DNA of 35,334 nucleotides from the IMG/VR virus record IMGVR_UViG_2713896776_000008, one strand, 5' to 3'. The DNA is from a virus. Its lineage: Duplodnaviria; Heunggongvirae; Uroviricota; Caudoviricetes. The notes beneath the pieces were generated by a model, which did not search any database, had not been told where the DNA came from, and saw only the letters and a program-made list of their open reading frames with translations. Of the stretch, positions 350-35,334 are shown in pieces; position 1 is the first letter of the stretch, and every line of letters starts with the position of its first letter. Made by a program: the position numbers and the translations under genes.

Positions 350-739
350 TTAGCTATTTTCCACCTTCTCTGAATCAGAGTCACCATCAAACAGTTTGCC
401 CTGCATCCGATCCAATTCTTCTTTTCTGACCCGCTTCACCACGCTGTAAACCCACTGTAGTGAAACACCGAATTTGCGGGCCAGTTCGTGATGGTTGCGT
501 CCGTCAAACTCCAGGAATATTTCCCGGTCGCGCTGACTGACCTTCCAGACCATGCCCATCGGAAAATAGACGTTTTGCCCACCCCAGACCTGCATCATGC
601 GGTTCGCGACGGCCTGACCAATCTGGTCGGCAACTGCGGGTTCGATATCAATAATCTCGCGGACGGTCTCAGAGGTATGCTGTGCCAGTTCTACCAACAG
701 TTCCGGCCCTTTACTACGAAACTGATTCAGGTCGCTCAT
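350..739 (-). CDS. mor: Mor/C-family transcriptional activator (middle/late activator), 129 aa
   Basis: ATG at 739 preceded by GGGAGTGA; GGQxVYxP...GRNhhELarkfGVS...VYsvvKRvR pattern typical of the Mor family; position downstream of gemA-like gene as in Mu. Confidence 0.8.
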   Translation of the reverse strand: MSDLNQFRSKGPELLVELAQHTSETVREIIDIEPAVADQIGQAVANRMMQVWGGQNVYFPMGMVWKVSQRDREIFLEFDGRNHHELARKFGVSLQWVYSVVKRVRKEELDRMQGKLFDGDSDSEKVENS

Positions 740-1164
740 TGCTTCACTCCCGCAGCTCTGCGCTGCCACTTCTTCAGTTTCTCAATCACGCTACTTGCCT
801 GCTCATTGCTGAGCCAGCGTAACGCGCTGATGCCTGTTTCCCGTTTAACCCACAGCGCCAGCGCCTGCTCTGAACTGTCTCGGACGATGCCTGCGGCAGC
901 CATTTCAAGCCATAGCGCACGGATTTTCTTTGACTGCGGATGACTATCCAGCGGTAAGCCGGACTTGGCTTTCCCGGCAGGCTTAATGCGAAAGCCTTTA
1001 TTTTTCATGGATTCCAGCACGCGGTTTAGCTGTGGGGTATCCATCCCTTTGGTTGAGGCTTTGCCGGTCAGCCCCTGTAGCATCTGGCGGTAGGTGTCCT
1101 CATCCATCTGGAGGTCATTGCGGGCAATATGGATGAGTTGAATAAGACGCTGCTTAGTCATCAT
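736..1164 (-). CDS. gemA: GemA-like regulatory protein (Mu gp16 family, DUF1018)
   Basis: MMTKQRLIQLIHIARNDLQMDEDTYRQMLQGLTGKAS... signature; AAGGAG upstream of ATG at 1164; stop overlaps mor start. Confidence 0.7.
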   Translation of the reverse strand: MMTKQRLIQLIHIARNDLQMDEDTYRQMLQGLTGKASTKGMDTPQLNRVLESMKNKGFRIKPAGKAKSGLPLDSHPQSKKIRALWLEMAAAGIVRDSSEQALALWVKRETGISALRWLSNEQASSVIEKLKKWQRRAAGVKQ

Positions 1165-8135: not shown

Positions 8136-8235
8136 CGTTGTCTCCTTTGTTCATGCAATGATGTTTGCCTTATGTGTGATAGATTATGGTGCAGATTTCC
8201 TCACCAGTCAACTTTAAGAGTGCAGAAATACTCAC
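8136..8235. promoter_or_regulatory. divergent early/repressor control region with direct GTGCAGA repeats (8189-8196, 8220-8227)
   Basis: 100-bp intergenic region between divergent ner-like and repressor genes; two GTGCAGA(T/A) copies 31 bp apart; AT-rich. Confidence 0.4.
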
Positions 8236-8574
8236 ATGATCGGTTTACGTATTAAAGAAGAAAGAGAACGTCTATCCCTTACGCAGCAAGGGTTAGCTGA
8301 CGCTATAGGTGTGGCGAAGAGAACTTTCATAGATTGGGAGAAAGATCGCACCTCCCCAACTGCAGTGCAGTTATCTGCACTATCAGAAATCGGCGTGGAT
8401 GTTTTGTATGTAGTTACTGGGATGAGGAGCCAACCTGTTGTTGCACCTTACGAGTCACAAGAAAAGAAAGAGTTAATGGACGCGTTCGACGACATGAGTC
8501 CCGAGCAGCGGAGGGCTATTCTTGAGGTCGGCAAAGTCCTCACTCAGCCAAAGCCCAGCAAGTTTGCTAGTTGA
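8236..8574 (+). CDS. XRE-family HTH repressor (c-repressor analogue)
   Basis: N-terminal HTH LSLTQQGLADAIGVAKRTFIDWEKDRTSP; divergent from early operon. Confidence 0.75.
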   Translation: MIGLRIKEERERLSLTQQGLADAIGVAKRTFIDWEKDRTSPTAVQLSALSEIGVDVLYVVTGMRSQPVVAPYESQEKKELMDAFDDMSPEQRRAILEVGKVLTQPKPSKFAS

Positions 8575-8697: not shown

Positions 8698-9636
8698 ATG
8701 CGTAAGATGTTTTTGGTCTTAGCTCTGTCATTGCTGGTCGGTTGTGATAGTGGATCAGATGGTGTATCGGATTCTCCTTCTACTCCGTCCGTAGAATTCA
8801 ATGTAAAAACGGACGATTTGACTGTAAACAAGCTGTTGCCTGCTATCAAAAATCTACTGCCAGGGTTAAATCGGTACGCAGATCAGTTCGAAAATATTCA
8901 CGTTGAGCAAAATCATTGGCTCACTATCGTGTTTCATGTTCCCGAAAATGCAAACATACCCGCAGATTATCTCTCTCAGGGGAATAATTGCTTCATCGAG
9001 ATCAATAAAGAAGGTACAGCTATAAAAGTGCCTAAAAGAGCCTGTAAATCCGTTGCCCTAGATAGAGTTGTGCAGGATTTAGATAGCGACTATTGGTTCT
9101 ATTTCAATGCCGACGAATTAACCTATGTGCCGTATGATTTTGCAAAGTTAAACGACAAACAACGTGTAGATATTGGTGTCGCATATCTAAAAAAAATGTG
9201 GGATATCGTGCAGATGGTTAAGCAAAAAACAGACTGGCAACCAGATGATTTTCCTAACTACGCCAGATTGTTCAGGCAACTGGAGAGTGAGGGTAAGCAG
9301 TTTGTAATGGAGGGGGATATGTTCCCAGCTTATGGCTCTTGCAGGATGGCGGGGGCTAACGCTCAGCAATGGTGGTCTACACAAATTAGCTCACTTAAAG
9401 ATTTATCTTCAAATGACCCTCAACGAGCGGGTTCCGCTTTAAAACAAATTAAACGTCAATATGACTCATATCATGAAAGCGCTGTGAGTTGTGCAAAAGA
9501 AATCAGGCAAGCTCCACCAGTAGAGAAAAAAATGGAGGTGTTACCCCCTACGTCAGACAATAAACCTCCAAGAGCGGGCTGTCTGATGATATTTACACCT
9601 GATGACAAGACTAGCTGGAGCTGCCCGATAAACTGA
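8698..9636 (+). CDS. lipoprotein (312 aa), lipobox LLVGC with Asp at +2, AT-rich cargo gene
   Basis: MRKMFLVLALSLLVGC|DSG signal peptide and lipobox; AAGGA RBS; local GC visibly lower than flanking phage genes; several Cys pairs in mature part. Confidence 0.7.
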   Translation: MRKMFLVLALSLLVGCDSGSDGVSDSPSTPSVEFNVKTDDLTVNKLLPAIKNLLPGLNRYADQFENIHVEQNHWLTIVFHVPENANIPADYLSQGNNCFIEINKEGTAIKVPKRACKSVALDRVVQDLDSDYWFYFNADELTYVPYDFAKLNDKQRVDIGVAYLKKMWDIVQMVKQKTDWQPDDFPNYARLFRQLESEGKQFVMEGDMFPAYGSCRMAGANAQQWWSTQISSLKDLSSNDPQRAGSALKQIKRQYDSYHESAVSCAKEIRQAPPVEKKMEVLPPTSDNKPPRAGCLMIFTPDDKTSWSCPIN

Positions 9637-10808: not shown

Positions 10809-10861
10809 GTTCTTTCAAAGCCATCATGCGGTTCACGTCCGCATCCTCACTATTAACGCTG

Positions 10862-10899
10862 TTTAAAATCCCTTTCCCCGACCATTTGTGATGCTGTCT
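10862..10899 (+). promoter_or_regulatory. candidate late promoter element (weaker third copy of TTTAAWATC-N20-ATRCTGYCY motif) upstream of lysis operon
   Basis: TTTAAAATCCCTTTCCCCG ... ATGCTGTCT with the same 20-nt spacing as copies at 24459 and 30287. Confidence 0.35.
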
Positions 10900-10921
10900 C
10901 CACTACACAAGGAGACGCACC

Positions 10922-11272
10922 ATGAAAAACCTGAAAAAACTTATTCCCCCTGTTAAAAAGCCACGTCTCAGCGGCTGGCTGCTGACCGCAGTGCTGTTGC
11001 TCGGTACCATCGGTCTTGTATCGCCCCAGCAGCTTCCGGTGGTTGTCTACAAGCTGTCACTCATCACGCTAGCGGCAGTATTGGGCTACTGGCTTGACCG
11101 TTCGCTTTTCCCCAAAGCCAGGCCAGGTCAGTACCTGAAGCATGACGACAGGCTGATGGCCGACGGGCGTTACCCGGTACAGACAGGCCTTCACCTGGTC
11201 TTTTCCGCTGCGCTAATCCGCCGTGCGCTGATTGTTGCCGCAGTCTGTCTGGCCGTAGCGACGGGGCTTTAA
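10922..11272 (+). CDS. putative holin / small lysis membrane protein (about 3 TM)
   Basis: AAGGAG RBS; hydrophobic segments WLLTAVLLLGTIGLV, LSLITLAAVLGYWL, ALIVAAVCLAVATGL; first gene of lysis cassette. Confidence 0.5.
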   Translation: MKNLKKLIPPVKKPRLSGWLLTAVLLLGTIGLVSPQQLPVVVYKLSLITLAAVLGYWLDRSLFPKARPGQYLKHDDRLMADGRYPVQTGLHLVFSAALIRRALIVAAVCLAVATGL

Positions 11273-18153: not shown

Positions 18154-18189
18154 GGGGCTGTATTACCTTTATAAAGGCTTTACAGCCCC
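18154..18189 (+). other. nested stem-loop GGGGCTGTA-[tta CCTTTATAAAGG ctt]-TACAGCCCC downstream of G
   Basis: 9-bp perfect stem enclosing a 12-bp perfect palindrome; 45 nt after G stop; no U-run follows. Confidence 0.35.
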
Positions 18190-18323
18190 CGCTTTGCACC
18201 ACTATTCGCCTGCAGCGTGACATTCCCCGTACTGATACCCCCGATTTTTTCTAAAGCAGATTAAAAGCGCCGCTGACGCTTTTTCCACAGACTGTCCCCG
18301 ACAACGTAACGCGGGACAGCAAA

Positions 18324-19421
18324 ATGCCAGCCATTCACATTTTTAAAGCCGGTACTCATACCGATATGCACGGCACGAAACTGCCGTTCACGCAAAGCGA
18401 TCTTGCCGCCTGCGTGAAAGCCTATGACCCGTCCGTCCATGAAGCACCACTCGTTATTGGCCACCCAAAAACGGAAGACCCGGCGTGGGGCTGGGTGAAG
18501 TCCCTGTCGCTTAACGGCGGCGATCTGCTGGCAGAGCCTGACCAGCTCGACCCGCAGTTTGCCGAACTGGTGGGCAACGGACGCTTCAAGAAGGTCTCCG
18601 CCTCGTTCTATCTCCCTGACTCACCGAACAACCCGAAGCCCGGCACGCTTTACCTGCGTCATGTCGGCTTTCTGGGGGCGCAGCCACCTTCCATTAAGGG
18701 GCTGAAGCAGGTTTCGTTTGGTGAGAAAGAAGAAGGCGTCGTGGAGTTTGCCGACTGGAGTGATATCACCAATGCCTCTTTATGGGGCCGTCTGCGCGAT
18801 TTTCTGATTGCTCAGTTCGGGCTGGACGAGACCGATAAGGTGCTTCCTTCATGGCAGGTGGACTCCCTGCGTGAAGAGGCTTACCGCGACACCGGGAAGT
18901 CTGAACCGGACTTCAGTGAGCACAATCCCAACCCTCAACAAGAGAACAGCACCATGACTGAAGAAGAAATCAAAGCGCTTCAGGCGGAAAACACACGTCT
19001 GAAAGCGGAAGCCACCCAGCGGGCAGAACAGGAAGCGAAGAGCAAGCAGGACAAACTGCACGCGGAGAACGTCTCCTTTGCCGAGAAGCTGGTTGGCGAT
19101 GGCCGCCTGGCCCCCAAAGCGAAGTCGGTAGTCGTGGCCATCCTGGACGCGGTTTCTGCAGGTGACAAGCCGGTTGAGTTTGCTGAAGGCGATACCCGCA
19201 CCCCGCTGGCCACGGCGTTTAAGACGCTGCTGGACAGCACTGATCCGGTACTGAATTTCAGTGAGCACGCGACCAAAGACCGCGTGAACACGGATATCAA
19301 AACGACGTCAGCGGAGTTTGCTGAAGCCGACCCGGAACGTCTGGCGCTGCATCAGAAAGCGCTGGAACTGTCGAAAAAAGAAGGCATCAGCTACGACGCT
19401 GCTGTCTCCCGCTGCCTGTAA
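18324..19421 (+). CDS. head protease/scaffold protein (Mu I-like)
   Basis: MPAIHIFKAGTHTDMHGTKLPF... N-terminus typical of Mu I family; Ala/Glu/Lys-rich coiled-coil C-terminal half (scaffold). Confidence 0.75.
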   Translation: MPAIHIFKAGTHTDMHGTKLPFTQSDLAACVKAYDPSVHEAPLVIGHPKTEDPAWGWVKSLSLNGGDLLAEPDQLDPQFAELVGNGRFKKVSASFYLPDSPNNPKPGTLYLRHVGFLGAQPPSIKGLKQVSFGEKEEGVVEFADWSDITNASLWGRLRDFLIAQFGLDETDKVLPSWQVDSLREEAYRDTGKSEPDFSEHNPNPQQENSTMTEEEIKALQAENTRLKAEATQRAEQEAKSKQDKLHAENVSFAEKLVGDGRLAPKAKSVVVAILDAVSAGDKPVEFAEGDTRTPLATAFKTLLDSTDPVLNFSEHATKDRVNTDIKTTSAEFAEADPERLALHQKALELSKKEGISYDAAVSRCL

Positions 19422-23335: not shown

Positions 23336-23856
23336 TGGCAAAGATTGAGATCAACCGCATCACGAATGCCAACATCTACCTGGATGGCGCTAACCTGCTG
23401 GGCCGGGCCGAGGAGGTCAAACTCCCGGACGTCTCCATGACCATGCAGGAGCATAAGGCGCTGGGGATGGTGGGCAAAGTGGAACTCCCGGCAGGCTTCG
23501 ACAAGCTGGAGGGTGAGATCAAGTGGAACAGCTTTTACCGCGACGCGATGCTGTCTGCTGCGAACCCGTATAAGTCGCTGGCGCTGCAGTGCCGTTCCAG
23601 CGTCCAGCGCTACAGTTCGCAGGGGCTGATTGACGAAATCCCGCTGGTCACATTCCTGACGATCATGTTCAAGAAGAACCCGCTGGGGACGTTCAAACAG
23701 CACGAGAACGCCGAGTTCTCTAGCAGCTTCACCTGCACGTACATCAAGCAGGTACTGGATGGTGAAGAGCTGCTGGAGCTGGACTATCTGGCCAACATCT
23801 TCCGAGTCGGCGGCGTTGACCAGTTGACTGATTACCGCATCAATATCGGAGGGTGA
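23335..23856 (+). CDS. tail tube protein
   Basis: 173 aa directly after sheath with overlapping stop/start (TGATG). Confidence 0.7.
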   Translation: MAKIEINRITNANIYLDGANLLGRAEEVKLPDVSMTMQEHKALGMVGKVELPAGFDKLEGEIKWNSFYRDAMLSAANPYKSLALQCRSSVQRYSSQGLIDEIPLVTFLTIMFKKNPLGTFKQHENAEFSSSFTCTYIKQVLDGEELLELDYLANIFRVGGVDQLTDYRINIGG

Positions 23857-23858
23857 TC

Positions 23859-24152
23859 ATGGTGGTACCCAAAGTTGAGCGCAAAACGATAGACGACCTG
23901 GTGGCGTCGCTGAGTTATCAGACCCACCACTTTCCGGGCACCACGCTGACAATTGCTGTCGCGCTGATGCCAGATGGCTTTATGGTCAGCAGTGGATTCA
24001 GAGCCACGGCGCATCCGGGGTTGTTCGATGAAGAGACCGGCAGGAAGGTGGCCATCGCTAAAGCGCAGCACAATGCGACTGAAGCGCTGTGGCAGTTTGA
24101 GGGGTACAGGCTGAAGTCCCGGCTGGCATCGGGGAACAACGATGACCGTTGA
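23859..24152 (+). CDS. hypothetical protein (possibly Gp49-like family), inserted between tube and chaperone
   Basis: ATG at 23859 after GGAGGG; 97 aa; no equivalent at this position in the canonical Mu or P2 gene order (from memory). Confidence 0.45.
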   Translation: MVVPKVERKTIDDLVASLSYQTHHFPGTTLTIAVALMPDGFMVSSGFRATAHPGLFDEETGRKVAIAKAQHNATEALWQFEGYRLKSRLASGNNDDR

Positions 24153-24423
24153 GATCGAAGATAAAGGCGGGAACTGTGGTTCGATTGGCATGGGGAATGG
24201 CACCTGGTTTACCATCCTCGATATTCCGGGGGTGGAAAACCTTTTTAATACCCGTAAAACCAATGACCCGATTGACTGCACCCGCTCCAAAGCACGGAAG
24301 CTCGCTGACCTGATTGAGGCATGGGAGCCACCTGACCACTGGTTCACCGGCATCGGCAAATCCGAAGGAAAGGCACTTCTTATCGCCTTCCTGCGTAACT
24401 GCAAAGGCTTTCGTACTCACTGA
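24142..24423 (+). CDS. hypothetical 93-aa protein
   Basis: ATG at 24142 overlapping upstream stop; followed by a strong intrinsic terminator. Confidence 0.45.
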   Translation: MTVEIEDKGGNCGSIGMGNGTWFTILDIPGVENLFNTRKTNDPIDCTRSKARKLADLIEAWEPPDHWFTGIGKSEGKALLIAFLRNCKGFRTH

Positions 24424-24430
24424 TATCACA

Positions 24431-24456
24431 GGGGCTTCGGCCCCTTTCTTCTTAAT
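24431..24456 (+). terminator. rho-independent terminator GGGGCTTCGGCCCC + TTTCTTCTT
   Basis: Perfect 5-bp GC stem with TTCG tetraloop followed by a T-rich tract, 8 nt after the stop at 24423. Confidence 0.65.
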
Positions 24457-24458
24457 CC

Positions 24459-24498
24459 CCTTTAATATCCGTTCCCCGCGTCACCGGACATACTGCCC
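24459..24498 (+). promoter_or_regulatory. candidate late promoter: CCTTTAATATC-N20-ATACTGCCC upstream of chaperone/tape-measure operon
   Basis: Bipartite motif identical in sequence and spacing to the copy at 30287-30326; a CATACT -10-like hexamer would give a short leader containing AGGAG. Confidence 0.5.
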
Positions 24499-24515
24499 TG
24501 AACTTACACAGGAGC

Positions 24516-24836
24516 ATGAACATGTCACAGGTACAACTCGAAGTATTTATTCCGGCCTATCCATTCACGACCGCTGTCGGAACGCGTATTGAGCGCATTG
24601 AACTCAAGCGTCTGACTGTTAAGGACCTGAAGCAGGTTCGAAAAACCTCTAAAGACCCGGCTGACTGGGACGAACCGCTGATTGCCCGCAGTACCGGCCT
24701 GCTCCCGGAGGACCTGGATAATATGGACCTGGCTGATTATCTGGAGCTGCAGAAACGATTTCAGCAAGTCACTGGGCTGGGCAAGAGCGACGAAAACGCT
24801 GATGCAGGCGCAGGGTCTCCTGGCGAGGTGGTTTAG
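24516..24836 (+). CDS. tail assembly chaperone (P2 gpE / Mu gp41-like)
   Basis: 106 aa immediately upstream of tape-measure gene; overlapping +1-frame ORF extends past its stop. Confidence 0.6.
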   Translation: MNMSQVQLEVFIPAYPFTTAVGTRIERIELKRLTVKDLKQVRKTSKDPADWDEPLIARSTGLLPEDLDNMDLADYLELQKRFQQVTGLGKSDENADAGAGSPGEVV

Positions 24837-30274: not shown

Positions 30275-30286
30275 CCTTCTTAAACG

Positions 30287-30326
30287 CCTTTAATATCGGC
30301 GTTCCCGCACAGGGGCAATACTGCCC
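30287..30326 (+). promoter_or_regulatory. candidate late promoter: CCTTTAATATC-N20-ATACTGCCC ending 2 nt before the ATG of the gp25/W-like gene
   Basis: Same bipartite motif and spacing as 24459-24498; downstream gene has no SD. Confidence 0.5.
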
Positions 30327-30328
30327 CC

Positions 30329-30676
30329 ATGAAAACAACTTCCGTATTCTGGCAACCGGCCCTGCAGGCCCCTGGCGAAATCGTCCGGGGGCTGGATGAT
30401 ATCTGGCAGGCCATTCAAATCATCCTGCGAACTCCTCGCGGCAGCGACCCGCATCGCCCGGAGTTCGGCAGCAACCTGCATCTTTATATCGACTGGCCCA
30501 TCGACCGGGCTATCCCACATGTGGTGCGCGAGTCCGTTGATGCCATCCGGCGCTGGGAGCCTCGCTGCCAGCTTATGTCGGTTAAACCCGCCGTCGACGG
30601 TGAACATCTTACGCTCCGGGTGAGCTGGAAAGGCTCTGACGGACAGCCCCGGACTCAGGAGCTTTTATGGCGCTGA
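30329..30676 (+). CDS. baseplate wedge protein (gp25 / GPW-like)
   Basis: 115 aa with conserved family layout; ATG at 30329 with no SD. Confidence 0.7.
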   Translation: MKTTSVFWQPALQAPGEIVRGLDDIWQAIQIILRTPRGSDPHRPEFGSNLHLYIDWPIDRAIPHVVRESVDAIRRWEPRCQLMSVKPAVDGEHLTLRVSWKGSDGQPRTQELLWR

Positions 30677-34752: not shown

Positions 34753-35334
34753 ATGGCCGTTATTGGTTATATCCGCGTATCAACAATCGACCAGAACAGC
34801 GATTTGCAGCGTAATGCACTCACAAGCGCAAACTGTGACCGCATTTTTGAAGACCGTATGAGTGGAAAAGTTGCCAGTCGCCCTGGTCTTAAAGGCGCTT
34901 TAAAGTGCATTAATAGCGGAGACACCCTGGTAGTGTGGAAACTGGACAGGCTGGGACGTAGCGTTAAGAACCTGATTGCACTCATATCAGAGTTACATGA
35001 ACGTGGTGCCCACTTCCGCTCTTTAACAGACAGTATTGATACCAGCACTGCCATGGGGCGCTTCTTTTTCCATGTAATGTCGGCATTGGCGGAGATGGAG
35101 CGCGAGCTAATTGTCGAACGGACACTGGCCGGGCTGGCAGCAGCCAGAGCACAGGGACGCGTAGGTGGAAGGCCCAACGCATTAAAAACCCATGAGCGAG
35201 AGCAGATTGGGCGGCTATTGACGAAGGGGCACACCCGCCAGCAGCTGGCAATTATCTACGGTGTAGGGTTATCGACGCTTTACCGATACTTTCCGGTGGA
35301 TGGTCATAGGAAGGATAACGCAGCAGGAATGTAA
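34753..35334 (+). CDS. gin: Gin/Hin/Pin-family serine DNA invertase
   Basis: N-terminal resolvase catalytic region GYIRVSTIDQNSDLQRNAL with active-site Ser, DRLGRS motif, C-terminal HTH; AGGAGG RBS; adjacent to invertible segment. Confidence 0.9.
   Translation: MAVIGYIRVSTIDQNSDLQRNALTSANCDRIFEDRMSGKVASRPGLKGALKCINSGDTLVVWKLDRLGRSVKNLIALISELHERGAHFRSLTDSIDTSTAMGRFFFHVMSALAEMERELIVERTLAGLAAARAQGRVGGRPNALKTHEREQIGRLLTKGHTRQQLAIIYGVGLSTLYRYFPVDGHRKDNAAGM

Follow-up and report, generated by a model that had tools for sequence, protein, structure and literature searches.

Four predicted Mor/C-type late promoters lacking a -35 element in a BcepMu-like transposable prophage

The DNA studied here, referred to below as the window, is a stretch of 35,334 nucleotides, and it is a BcepMu-like transposable prophage of Enterobacteriaceae. 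When its late region (10000-34000) was compared with known phages, it showed 96% identity over 89% of the query to Klebsiella phage KP12 and 86% identity to Escherichia phage PhiKM, a phage assigned to Bcepmuvirus. Recognisable DNA was also found in common with Burkholderia phage BcepMu. The minus strand carries the early operon (about 8135 to 1), which encodes Cro-like and IclR-like regulators, transposase A and B, DUF3164, GemA and a Mor-family protein. The late genes are all on the plus strand, from 10922 onward. The best sigma-70 consensus match in the window (TTGACT-17 nt-CATAAT, 10 of 12 positions; 8183-8211, minus strand) faces the early operon, is divergent from a helix-turn-helix repressor-like gene at 8236-8574, and is probably the early promoter. 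At the far end of the same strand, 3' of the Mor-family gene, the last ORF (1-330, minus) resembles the Mu gp27 (small terminase-like) domain in the N-terminal third of that domain only, and its product may be a separate DNA-binding protein.

A sequence-only reading of the window had proposed a bipartite motif, TTTAAWATC-N20-ATRCTGYCY, in three copies, upstream of the lysis, chaperone/tape-measure and baseplate W operons. By direct reading and by pattern search, all three copies were found on the plus strand with zero mismatches (10862-10899, 24461-24498 and 30289-30326), each with the 20-nt spacing that had been claimed. The coordinates 24459-24498 and 30287-30326, under which two of them were described, are exact when a CC prefix is counted, and the gene labels were correct. 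Against these three matches, 0.01 were expected from dinucleotide shuffles, and none of 100 shuffles reached three. No extra match appeared in the window when two mismatches were allowed. It had also been stated that the motif is absent upstream of the I/capsid operon, and this did not hold: a degenerate fourth copy lies there, reading ATTAAAAGC-N20-AGACTGTCC, with three mismatches to the pattern. This copy, and the longer architecture described below, were found via the orthologous intergenic regions of KP12, PhiKM and BcepMu, and then of about 160 IMG/VR relatives.

The four sites are located 5' of the holin, the I protease/scaffold, the tail chaperone and the baseplate W genes. The genes that follow the lysis site are those for the holin and an SLT lysin (from 10922), the E site precedes the tail chaperone (Phage_TAC_7) and tape measure genes (from 24522), and the W site precedes the gene for a GPW_gp25 baseplate protein (30329). 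The layout common to all four consists of a 14-bp dyad, (N)TAA-N6-TTAA, a 23-nt variable spacer, a -10-like hexamer, NANNCT, and a 6-nt G+C-rich discriminator (Table 1). Hence the left box of the original motif, TTTAAWATC, is only the right half of the dyad plus WATC, and the protein site would be the whole dyad. The right box, ATRCTGYCY, comprises the 3' part of the hexamer together with the discriminator. The predicted +1 positions were placed solely by the rule of 7 (+/-1) nt after the hexamer.

Table 1. Window coordinates of the predicted late promoters and associated features.
Feature	Position	Strand	Details
Mor/C-family gene, putative activator	350..769	-	penultimate in early operon; likely start ATG 739 (129 aa)
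Lysis-operon late promoter (predicted)	10853..10902	+	dyad TTAACGCTGTTTAA 10853-10866; 23-nt spacer; TG-extended hexamer GATGCT 10890-10895; discriminator GTCTCC 10896-10901; predicted +1 A10902 (+/-1); holin ATG 10922
Lysis hairpin (predicted), read-through RNA only	10885..10926	+	GTCTCC (10896-10901) x GGAGAC (10911-10916); outer stem reaches AUG
Head operon (protease/scaffold I + capsid) late promoter (predicted)	18251..18300	+	dyad CTAAAGCAGATTAA 18251-18264; hexamer CAGACT 18288-18293; discriminator GTCCCC 18294-18299; predicted +1 G18300 (+/-1); ATG 18324
I hairpin (predicted)	18292..18319	+	CTGTCCC(CG)...(CG)GGGACAG; discriminator x gene I Shine-Dalgarno region
Intrinsic terminator	24430..24451	+	GGGGCTTCGGCCCC then T-run; ends just 5' of E-site dyad; conserved in relatives
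Tail chaperone (E)/tape-measure operon late promoter (predicted)	24452..24501	+	dyad TTAATCCCCTTTAA 24452-24465; hexamer CATACT 24489-24494; discriminator GCCCTG 24495-24500; predicted +1 A24501 (+/-1); start codon 24522
E hairpin (predicted)	24487..24526	+	TGCCCTG (last hexamer base + discriminator) x CAGG(A)GCA (Shine-Dalgarno AGGAG)
Baseplate (W-J-I-fibre) operon late promoter (predicted)	30280..30331	+	dyad TTAAACGCCTTTAA 30280-30293, perfect 5+5 palindrome; hexamer AATACT 30317-30322; discriminator GCCCCC 30323-30328; W ATG 30329 = predicted +1
Inverted repeat	30312..30327	+	GGGGCA-ATAC-TGCCCC; brackets -10 hexamer of W promoter

When the pattern was redefined as TAA-N6-TTAA-N24-A..CTG, exactly four matches were obtained in the window against 0.01 expected, all of them on the plus strand and all intergenic. 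A weight matrix, trained on relatives only and used with a threshold of 8 bits, likewise picked out exactly the four late sites (scores 36-54) and nothing else in the window. It found the same four sites in KP12 and PhiKM, and its top plus-strand matches in BcepMu were the lysis, I and W sites. A fifth motif-like site at 34900-34944 (TTAAAGTGCATTAA, 24 nt, GAAACT) was judged to be a chance occurrence, since it lies inside the coding sequence of a DNA invertase (conserved GDTLVVWKL), has a spacing one base too long and gives no weight-matrix match. The sequence TTAA-N6-TTAA at 9439 was also rejected; it lies in an A+T-rich ORF and has no hexamer at the right distance.

None of the four late sites was flagged by a consensus sigma-70 scan, so none has a usable -35. 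By eye, the windows in which a -35 would fall (TATCCG, TATCGG, AATCCC and AAGCGC) match TTGACA at no more than two of six positions. The hexamers GATGCT, CAGACT, CATACT and AATACT all keep A2 and T6, the first two being weak hexamers. For the predicted, unmapped starts, the centre of the dyad falls at -42.5 if +1 is 7 nt after the hexamer, and at -43.5 if it is 8 nt after. It may be noted that an inverted repeat, AAAAGCG-CCGCTGA-CGCTTTT, is present in the spacer of the I promoter (18263-18283) and is kept as AAAAGC...GCTTTT in enterobacterial relatives.

A motif scan over the window and related phages, proposed together with the original motif, found the layout conserved in the relatives. The arrangement of dyad, 23 nt and hexamer was invariant in the 44-47 distinct variants available per site. 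The half-sites and A..CTG were at least 95% conserved and the spacer was nearly free (26-35 distinct variants per site); unlike the rest of the spacer, the WATC that follows the dyad was 80-100% conserved across variants. At the lysis site, the conserved block extended from about -55 downstream, and the upstream flanks were wholly different among relatives. Over 100 relatives shared the architecture, their range extending from Enterobacterales to Burkholderia, Desulfovibrio and alphaproteobacteria. When deep conservation was scanned with one genome per species, the W promoter geometry was found to be kept in Enterobacterales (Pantoea, Photorhabdus, Xenorhabdus, Pectobacterium and Brenneria), Burkholderia, Chromobacterium, Zoogloea and Hydrogenophilales, and also in Lysobacter, Desulfovibrio, alphaproteobacteria and Pigmentiphaga. 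It persisted where the baseplate J protein is only about 45-60% identical. Such conservation of the layout far exceeds what neutral drift would leave.

Some lineages had both half-sites changed together. In one Desulfovibrio locus they read TGAA/TTCA, and in alphaproteobacteria and Pigmentiphaga they read GGACA/TGTCC (CCGGACA-N2-TGTCCGG). A symmetric change of this kind is expected of the site of a dimeric DNA-binding protein, not of an RNA element. In five deep lineages a second site with the same dyad type was present about 6 kb upstream of W, consistent with its being the promoter of the tail chaperone gene (E).

The gene at 350-769 matched Pfam Mor with an E-value of 1.3e-42. Its product is 30% identical to Mu Mor, 34% to Mu C and 53% to BcepMu gp01, and it carries GG..Y.P.G, the linker motif of the Mor/C family (PMC2582627). 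By tblastn, one Mor/C homologue each was detected in the window, KP12, PhiKM and BcepMu, and two were detected in Mu. From the analogy with Mu, and from its being the sole member of the family in the phage, this protein is the likely one to recognise the dyad.

The geometry was then compared with that of the Mu promoters. The dyad for Mu Mor spans -51 to -36 with its centre at -43.5 (PMC4287176). Mu C uses a 16-bp imperfect dyad, also centred at -43.5, at promoters that have a -10 and no -35, and the bases just 3' of the dyad are critical (PMC2582627); the conservation of WATC would be compatible with such a requirement. Both proteins touch the DNA in two neighbouring major grooves 5' of -35 (bioRxiv 10.1101/2025.05.02.651988, preprint), which fits the half-sites 10 bp apart in the window. 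As a positive control, the geometric pattern.TAA-N6-TTAA-N23-.A...T was run on both strands of Mu. It gave two matches, one of which (GTAAAGCCGGTTAA, 23 nt, TATCCT) is in the intergenic region between mor and gene 18, where Pm lies. The dyad in this Pm region is identical at 13 of 14 positions to that of the BcepMu I promoter, at 11 of 14 to the window I site, and at 9-11 of 14 to the window sites overall. Mu Pm resembles the sites described here in having a -10-like hexamer without a -35, an imperfect dyad near -43.5 and, with the candidate hexamer TATCCT, the 23-nt geometry; in both systems the activator gene is at the end of the early operon beside gemA.

The C-dependent late promoters of Mu also offer a parallel. 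There are four of them, heading the lysis, head, tail/baseplate and accessory genes, and they too have a -10 without a -35 and a 16-bp imperfect dyad (PMC2582627). The -10 regions are similar, as seen from Plys (TAGACTGCC) and PI (CAAACTGAC) on the Mu side and CATACTGCC and CAGACTGTC in the window. The half-sites differ, being TTAT...ATAA at Mu Pmom and TTAA...TTAA here. The operon break points are also unlike those of Mu, with promoters before the tail chaperone and W genes, beside P2-like tail genes. By their sequences, the four sites appear closer to the Mu middle promoter than to the Mu late promoters. In Mu, Mor activates one middle operon, from which C is made to activate the late promoters. 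By contrast, this phage has no paralogue corresponding to C, and its four late operons appear to depend directly on a single protein of the Mor type.

Downstream lie tail genes of P2 type (E, T, U, D, V, W, J, I, H), and those of P2 are likewise under activator-dependent promoters without a -35. The late promoters of P2 and 186 are activated by Ogr/B and have a TGT-N12-ACA dyad near -55. By eye, TGT-N12-ACA was absent near -55 from all four upstream regions, and no Ogr-type zinc-finger gene was present among the scanned ORFs. In position also there is a difference, the promoter being before W here and before V in P2. As neither the dyad nor, among the scanned ORFs, such an activator gene was seen, late promoters of the P2 Ogr/B/Delta type were rejected.

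The intrinsic terminator that precedes the E-site dyad closes the head/sheath/tube transcription unit. It is a strong terminator directly 5' of the dyad, so that a fresh start of transcription is needed there. In the ORF list the tail chaperone begins with the ATG at 24516. KP12 and most relatives have ACG at this position and use the second ATG (24522), which is 8 nt after AGGAG; since these relatives have no ATG at 24516, the true start would be 24522.

Published dRNA-seq data for B. cenocepacia J2315, an uninduced BcepMu lysogen, list no start at the predicted late +1 positions (PMC4603805, Table S3), and this absence weakly fits activator dependence. The same table gives a primary start in uninduced cells 21 nt upstream of gp20, for a transcript heading toward the holin gene. 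In BcepMu (L003) this start is at about 11243, which is position 598712 of J2315 chromosome 3, and it lies 3' of a TATGCT hexamer. Lysogenic read-through into the BcepMu lysis operon is thus plausible.

The discriminator (-7 to -1) of the lysis, I and E sites is predicted to pair with the Shine-Dalgarno region, which lies 10-20 nt further 3', and the conservation of the discriminator is better explained by this pairing. The lysis hairpin had a folding energy of -16.1 kcal/mol (z -5.2), none of 200 shuffles folded as well, and it was kept in all variants of the lysis promoter. For the I hairpin (-13.1 kcal/mol, z -2.6), four of the nine pairs showed compensatory double changes among 18 variants. 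The E hairpin (-12.6 kcal/mol, z -3.0) was retained and lengthened to 11-12 bp in the distant variants L149, L151 and L161. RNAalifold gave no compensatory counts for it, there being indels in the arm, and single-sequence folds still paired. Both the E and the lysis stems persist, at times longer, in distant variants. When the RNA was taken from the predicted +1, it was essentially open at all three sites (-0.5 to -4.8 kcal/mol, with only -0.5 kcal/mol for lysis). In the BcepMu lysis region (-28.4 kcal/mol, z -5.0), the Shine-Dalgarno sequence pairs with a segment upstream of the hexamer.

Many initiation regions of this G+C-rich genome are structured, and in a folding-energy control the four sites ranked 3rd, 4th, 6th and 8th of 25 late-gene starts. 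Since the sites are not outliers in energy, the idea of an anti-Shine-Dalgarno function rests on covariation and position. We regard it as possible, with the odds somewhat against it, that these hairpins shut read-through RNA only. A precedent for such a device comes from IS10/Tn10, where Davis, Simons and Kleckner (1985) reportedly described 'fold-back inhibition' of transposase translation in read-through transcripts. There, the ribosome-binding site is paired with sequence lying 5' of the start of the element's own transcript, so that only RNA from outside is silenced, and the same logic is predicted here. The IS10 case concerns one transposase gene at the end of an element, whereas here three internal phage late operons would be involved, by prediction only.

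The W site is arranged differently. Neither a Shine-Dalgarno sequence nor an in-frame start codon precedes the W ATG, and homology of the W protein starts at residue 4. Almost all close relatives place this ATG exactly 7 nt past the hexamer. Among 26 representative lineages the distance was 7 nt in 22 and 9 nt in two; two Desulfovibrio-type sequences were left unplaced by the script. As the W ATG coincides with the predicted +1 and has no Shine-Dalgarno sequence before it, a leaderless mRNA is predicted. The natural reading, held with less certainty than the promoter assignment, is that W would be translated from a leaderless mRNA starting at the AUG. Coupling of W through ATGA to a small upstream ORF was considered and rejected, that frame having no start codon. 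Neither a leaderless start nor the Shine-Dalgarno pairing, both predicted for this phage, is evident by eye at Mu Plys.

A hairpin was also found at the W hexamer, where the region 30305-30345 (41 nt) folds at -12 kcal/mol. About 15 of 23 diverse lineages had it, with stems that differ in sequence (combined z -6.6), and in Desulfovibrio the arms were swapped. G+C-rich inverted repeats bracketing the hexamer were seen at three BcepMu sites as well. In BcepMu the annotated start of gp32 (18850) is inside the predicted I-promoter hexamer, GATGAT; a likelier start is the ATG at 18862, which follows the predicted +1 by one base, and gene I of BcepMu would then be nearly leaderless too.

We read the motif as four sigma-70-type late promoters that lack a -35 and are switched on by the sole Mor/C protein of the phage at the dyad, and we put the probability of this at roughly 0.8. 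The four promoters would be unable to fire unaided. The Mor/C-family protein, made at the end of the early operon, would bind (N)TAA-N6-TTAA through half-sites 10 bp apart, on two adjacent major grooves. With the dyad centre about 43 bp upstream of the start, it would be placed to touch RNA polymerase across the missing -35, in the manner of Mor at Mu Pm. The promoters would head the lysis/packaging, head, tail-chaperone/tape-measure and baseplate/fibre operons, and the cascade would pass from early to late in one step, with no separate C protein. The proposal of the sequence-only reading, namely activator-dependent late promoters of the Mor/C type, is supported in so far as the defining features are all present at the level of sequence.

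A further part of the mechanism is more doubtful. At the lysis, head and tail-chaperone sites, the discriminator, being upstream of +1, would act as an anti-Shine-Dalgarno sequence in read-through RNA only, so that read-through RNA would be folded shut and promoter-initiated RNA would be open. Such read-through RNA might come, for example, from lysogenic genes pointing at the holin gene, like the gp20 start in the BcepMu lysogen. The full combination, in which Mor-type activation is coupled to a translational filter embedded in the promoters, and W is translated only from leaderless mRNA from Enterobacterales to alphaproteobacteria, is offered tentatively, and we would sooner expect it to fail in some part than to hold throughout.

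It could be argued that the conserved blocks act purely at the level of RNA, as hairpins between cistrons by which the translation, processing or stability of long late transcripts is controlled from within. Hairpins do occur at all four sites, with covariation at I and recurrence across lineages at W. The best-conserved part, the dyad, is nevertheless in no predicted RNA structure, yet it stands at exactly 23 nt from the NANNNT hexamer, and the paired changes of its half-sites are those of a site for a dimeric DNA-binding protein. Moreover, transcription has to start anew after the terminator at the E site, and the same pattern picks out the middle-promoter region of Mu. A purely RNA-level role is thus very unlikely. 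In an Rfam 15 scan of the whole window, no match reached the gathering score. The dyads might instead be promoter-linked operators for some other phage or host protein (IclR-like, Cro-like, a repressor or IHF), giving negative control or serving a different activator; the phage does encode several further helix-turn-helix proteins. Against this, the centre near -43 over a missing -35, the 10-bp spacing of the half-sites and the near-identity to the dyad of the Mu Pm region all fit Mor/C. By eye the site sequences do not fit the IHF consensus, WATCAANNNNTTR, and for a repressor, a site centred at -43 on a promoter without a -35 would be a poor location. We consider such a role for another protein improbable.

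Chance matches, or repeats left by recombination at module junctions and having no regulatory role, are the remaining alternative. Phage genomes are mosaic, and the complete difference of the upstream flanks at the lysis site among relatives is what such a history might leave. With only 0.01 matches expected, however, this explanation is effectively refuted. Spacers that diverge next to fixed half-sites and hexamers are the reverse of what a passive repeat would show, and the geometry is kept even in the relatives with a diverged baseplate J.

Mor/C-dependent promoters are of a well-studied kind, and those proposed here are an expected sort of element, the predicted leaderless W and the predicted hairpins being less expected. 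A literature search gave no paper mapping or predicting promoters in BcepMu-like phages; the BcepMu genome paper (J Mol Biol 2004) was outside that search. What deserves testing is the cascade with a single activator, the presence of a Pm-like site at late operons, the conservation of a leaderless W and the anti-Shine-Dalgarno hairpins embedded in the promoters. The analysis provides a full, testable transcription map, comprising a single early operon, a single activator of the Mor type and four late promoters whose predicted binding sites are defined, for a widespread group of transposable prophages of E. coli, Klebsiella, Salmonella-type hosts, Photorhabdus, Pectobacterium and Burkholderia. 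It suggests that a cascade with two activators, as in Mu (Mor, then C), is not the general rule, and that a Pm-like site placed directly on the late operons is an ancestral or simpler design. The co-changing half-sites would offer naturally occurring variants of specificity for the Mor/C family; complexes of these proteins with polymerase were described only recently, in a preprint. If the leaderless W and the hairpins are real, they would show how a prophage keeps its lysis and structural genes untranslated on stray read-through RNA.

Two other regions may be noted. Between the tail tube gene and the terminator there are two small genes (23853-24423). The first matches PF13876 (Phage_gp49_66), which we take to be a HigB/RelE-like toxin family, and the second, for a protein of 93 aa, matches DUF7739 weakly and is the only one of the two in KP12. 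The region looks like an inserted toxin-antitoxin-like extra gene ('moron'). Between G and I there is a long palindrome, GGGGCTGTA-TTACCTTTATAAAGGCTT-TACAGCCCC (18154-18189), which is kept in KP12 and PhiKM, and BcepMu has one with a different stem. The annotated gyrase cut site of Mu is at the same map position, between G and I, and by this analogy the palindrome may be the counterpart of the strong gyrase site.
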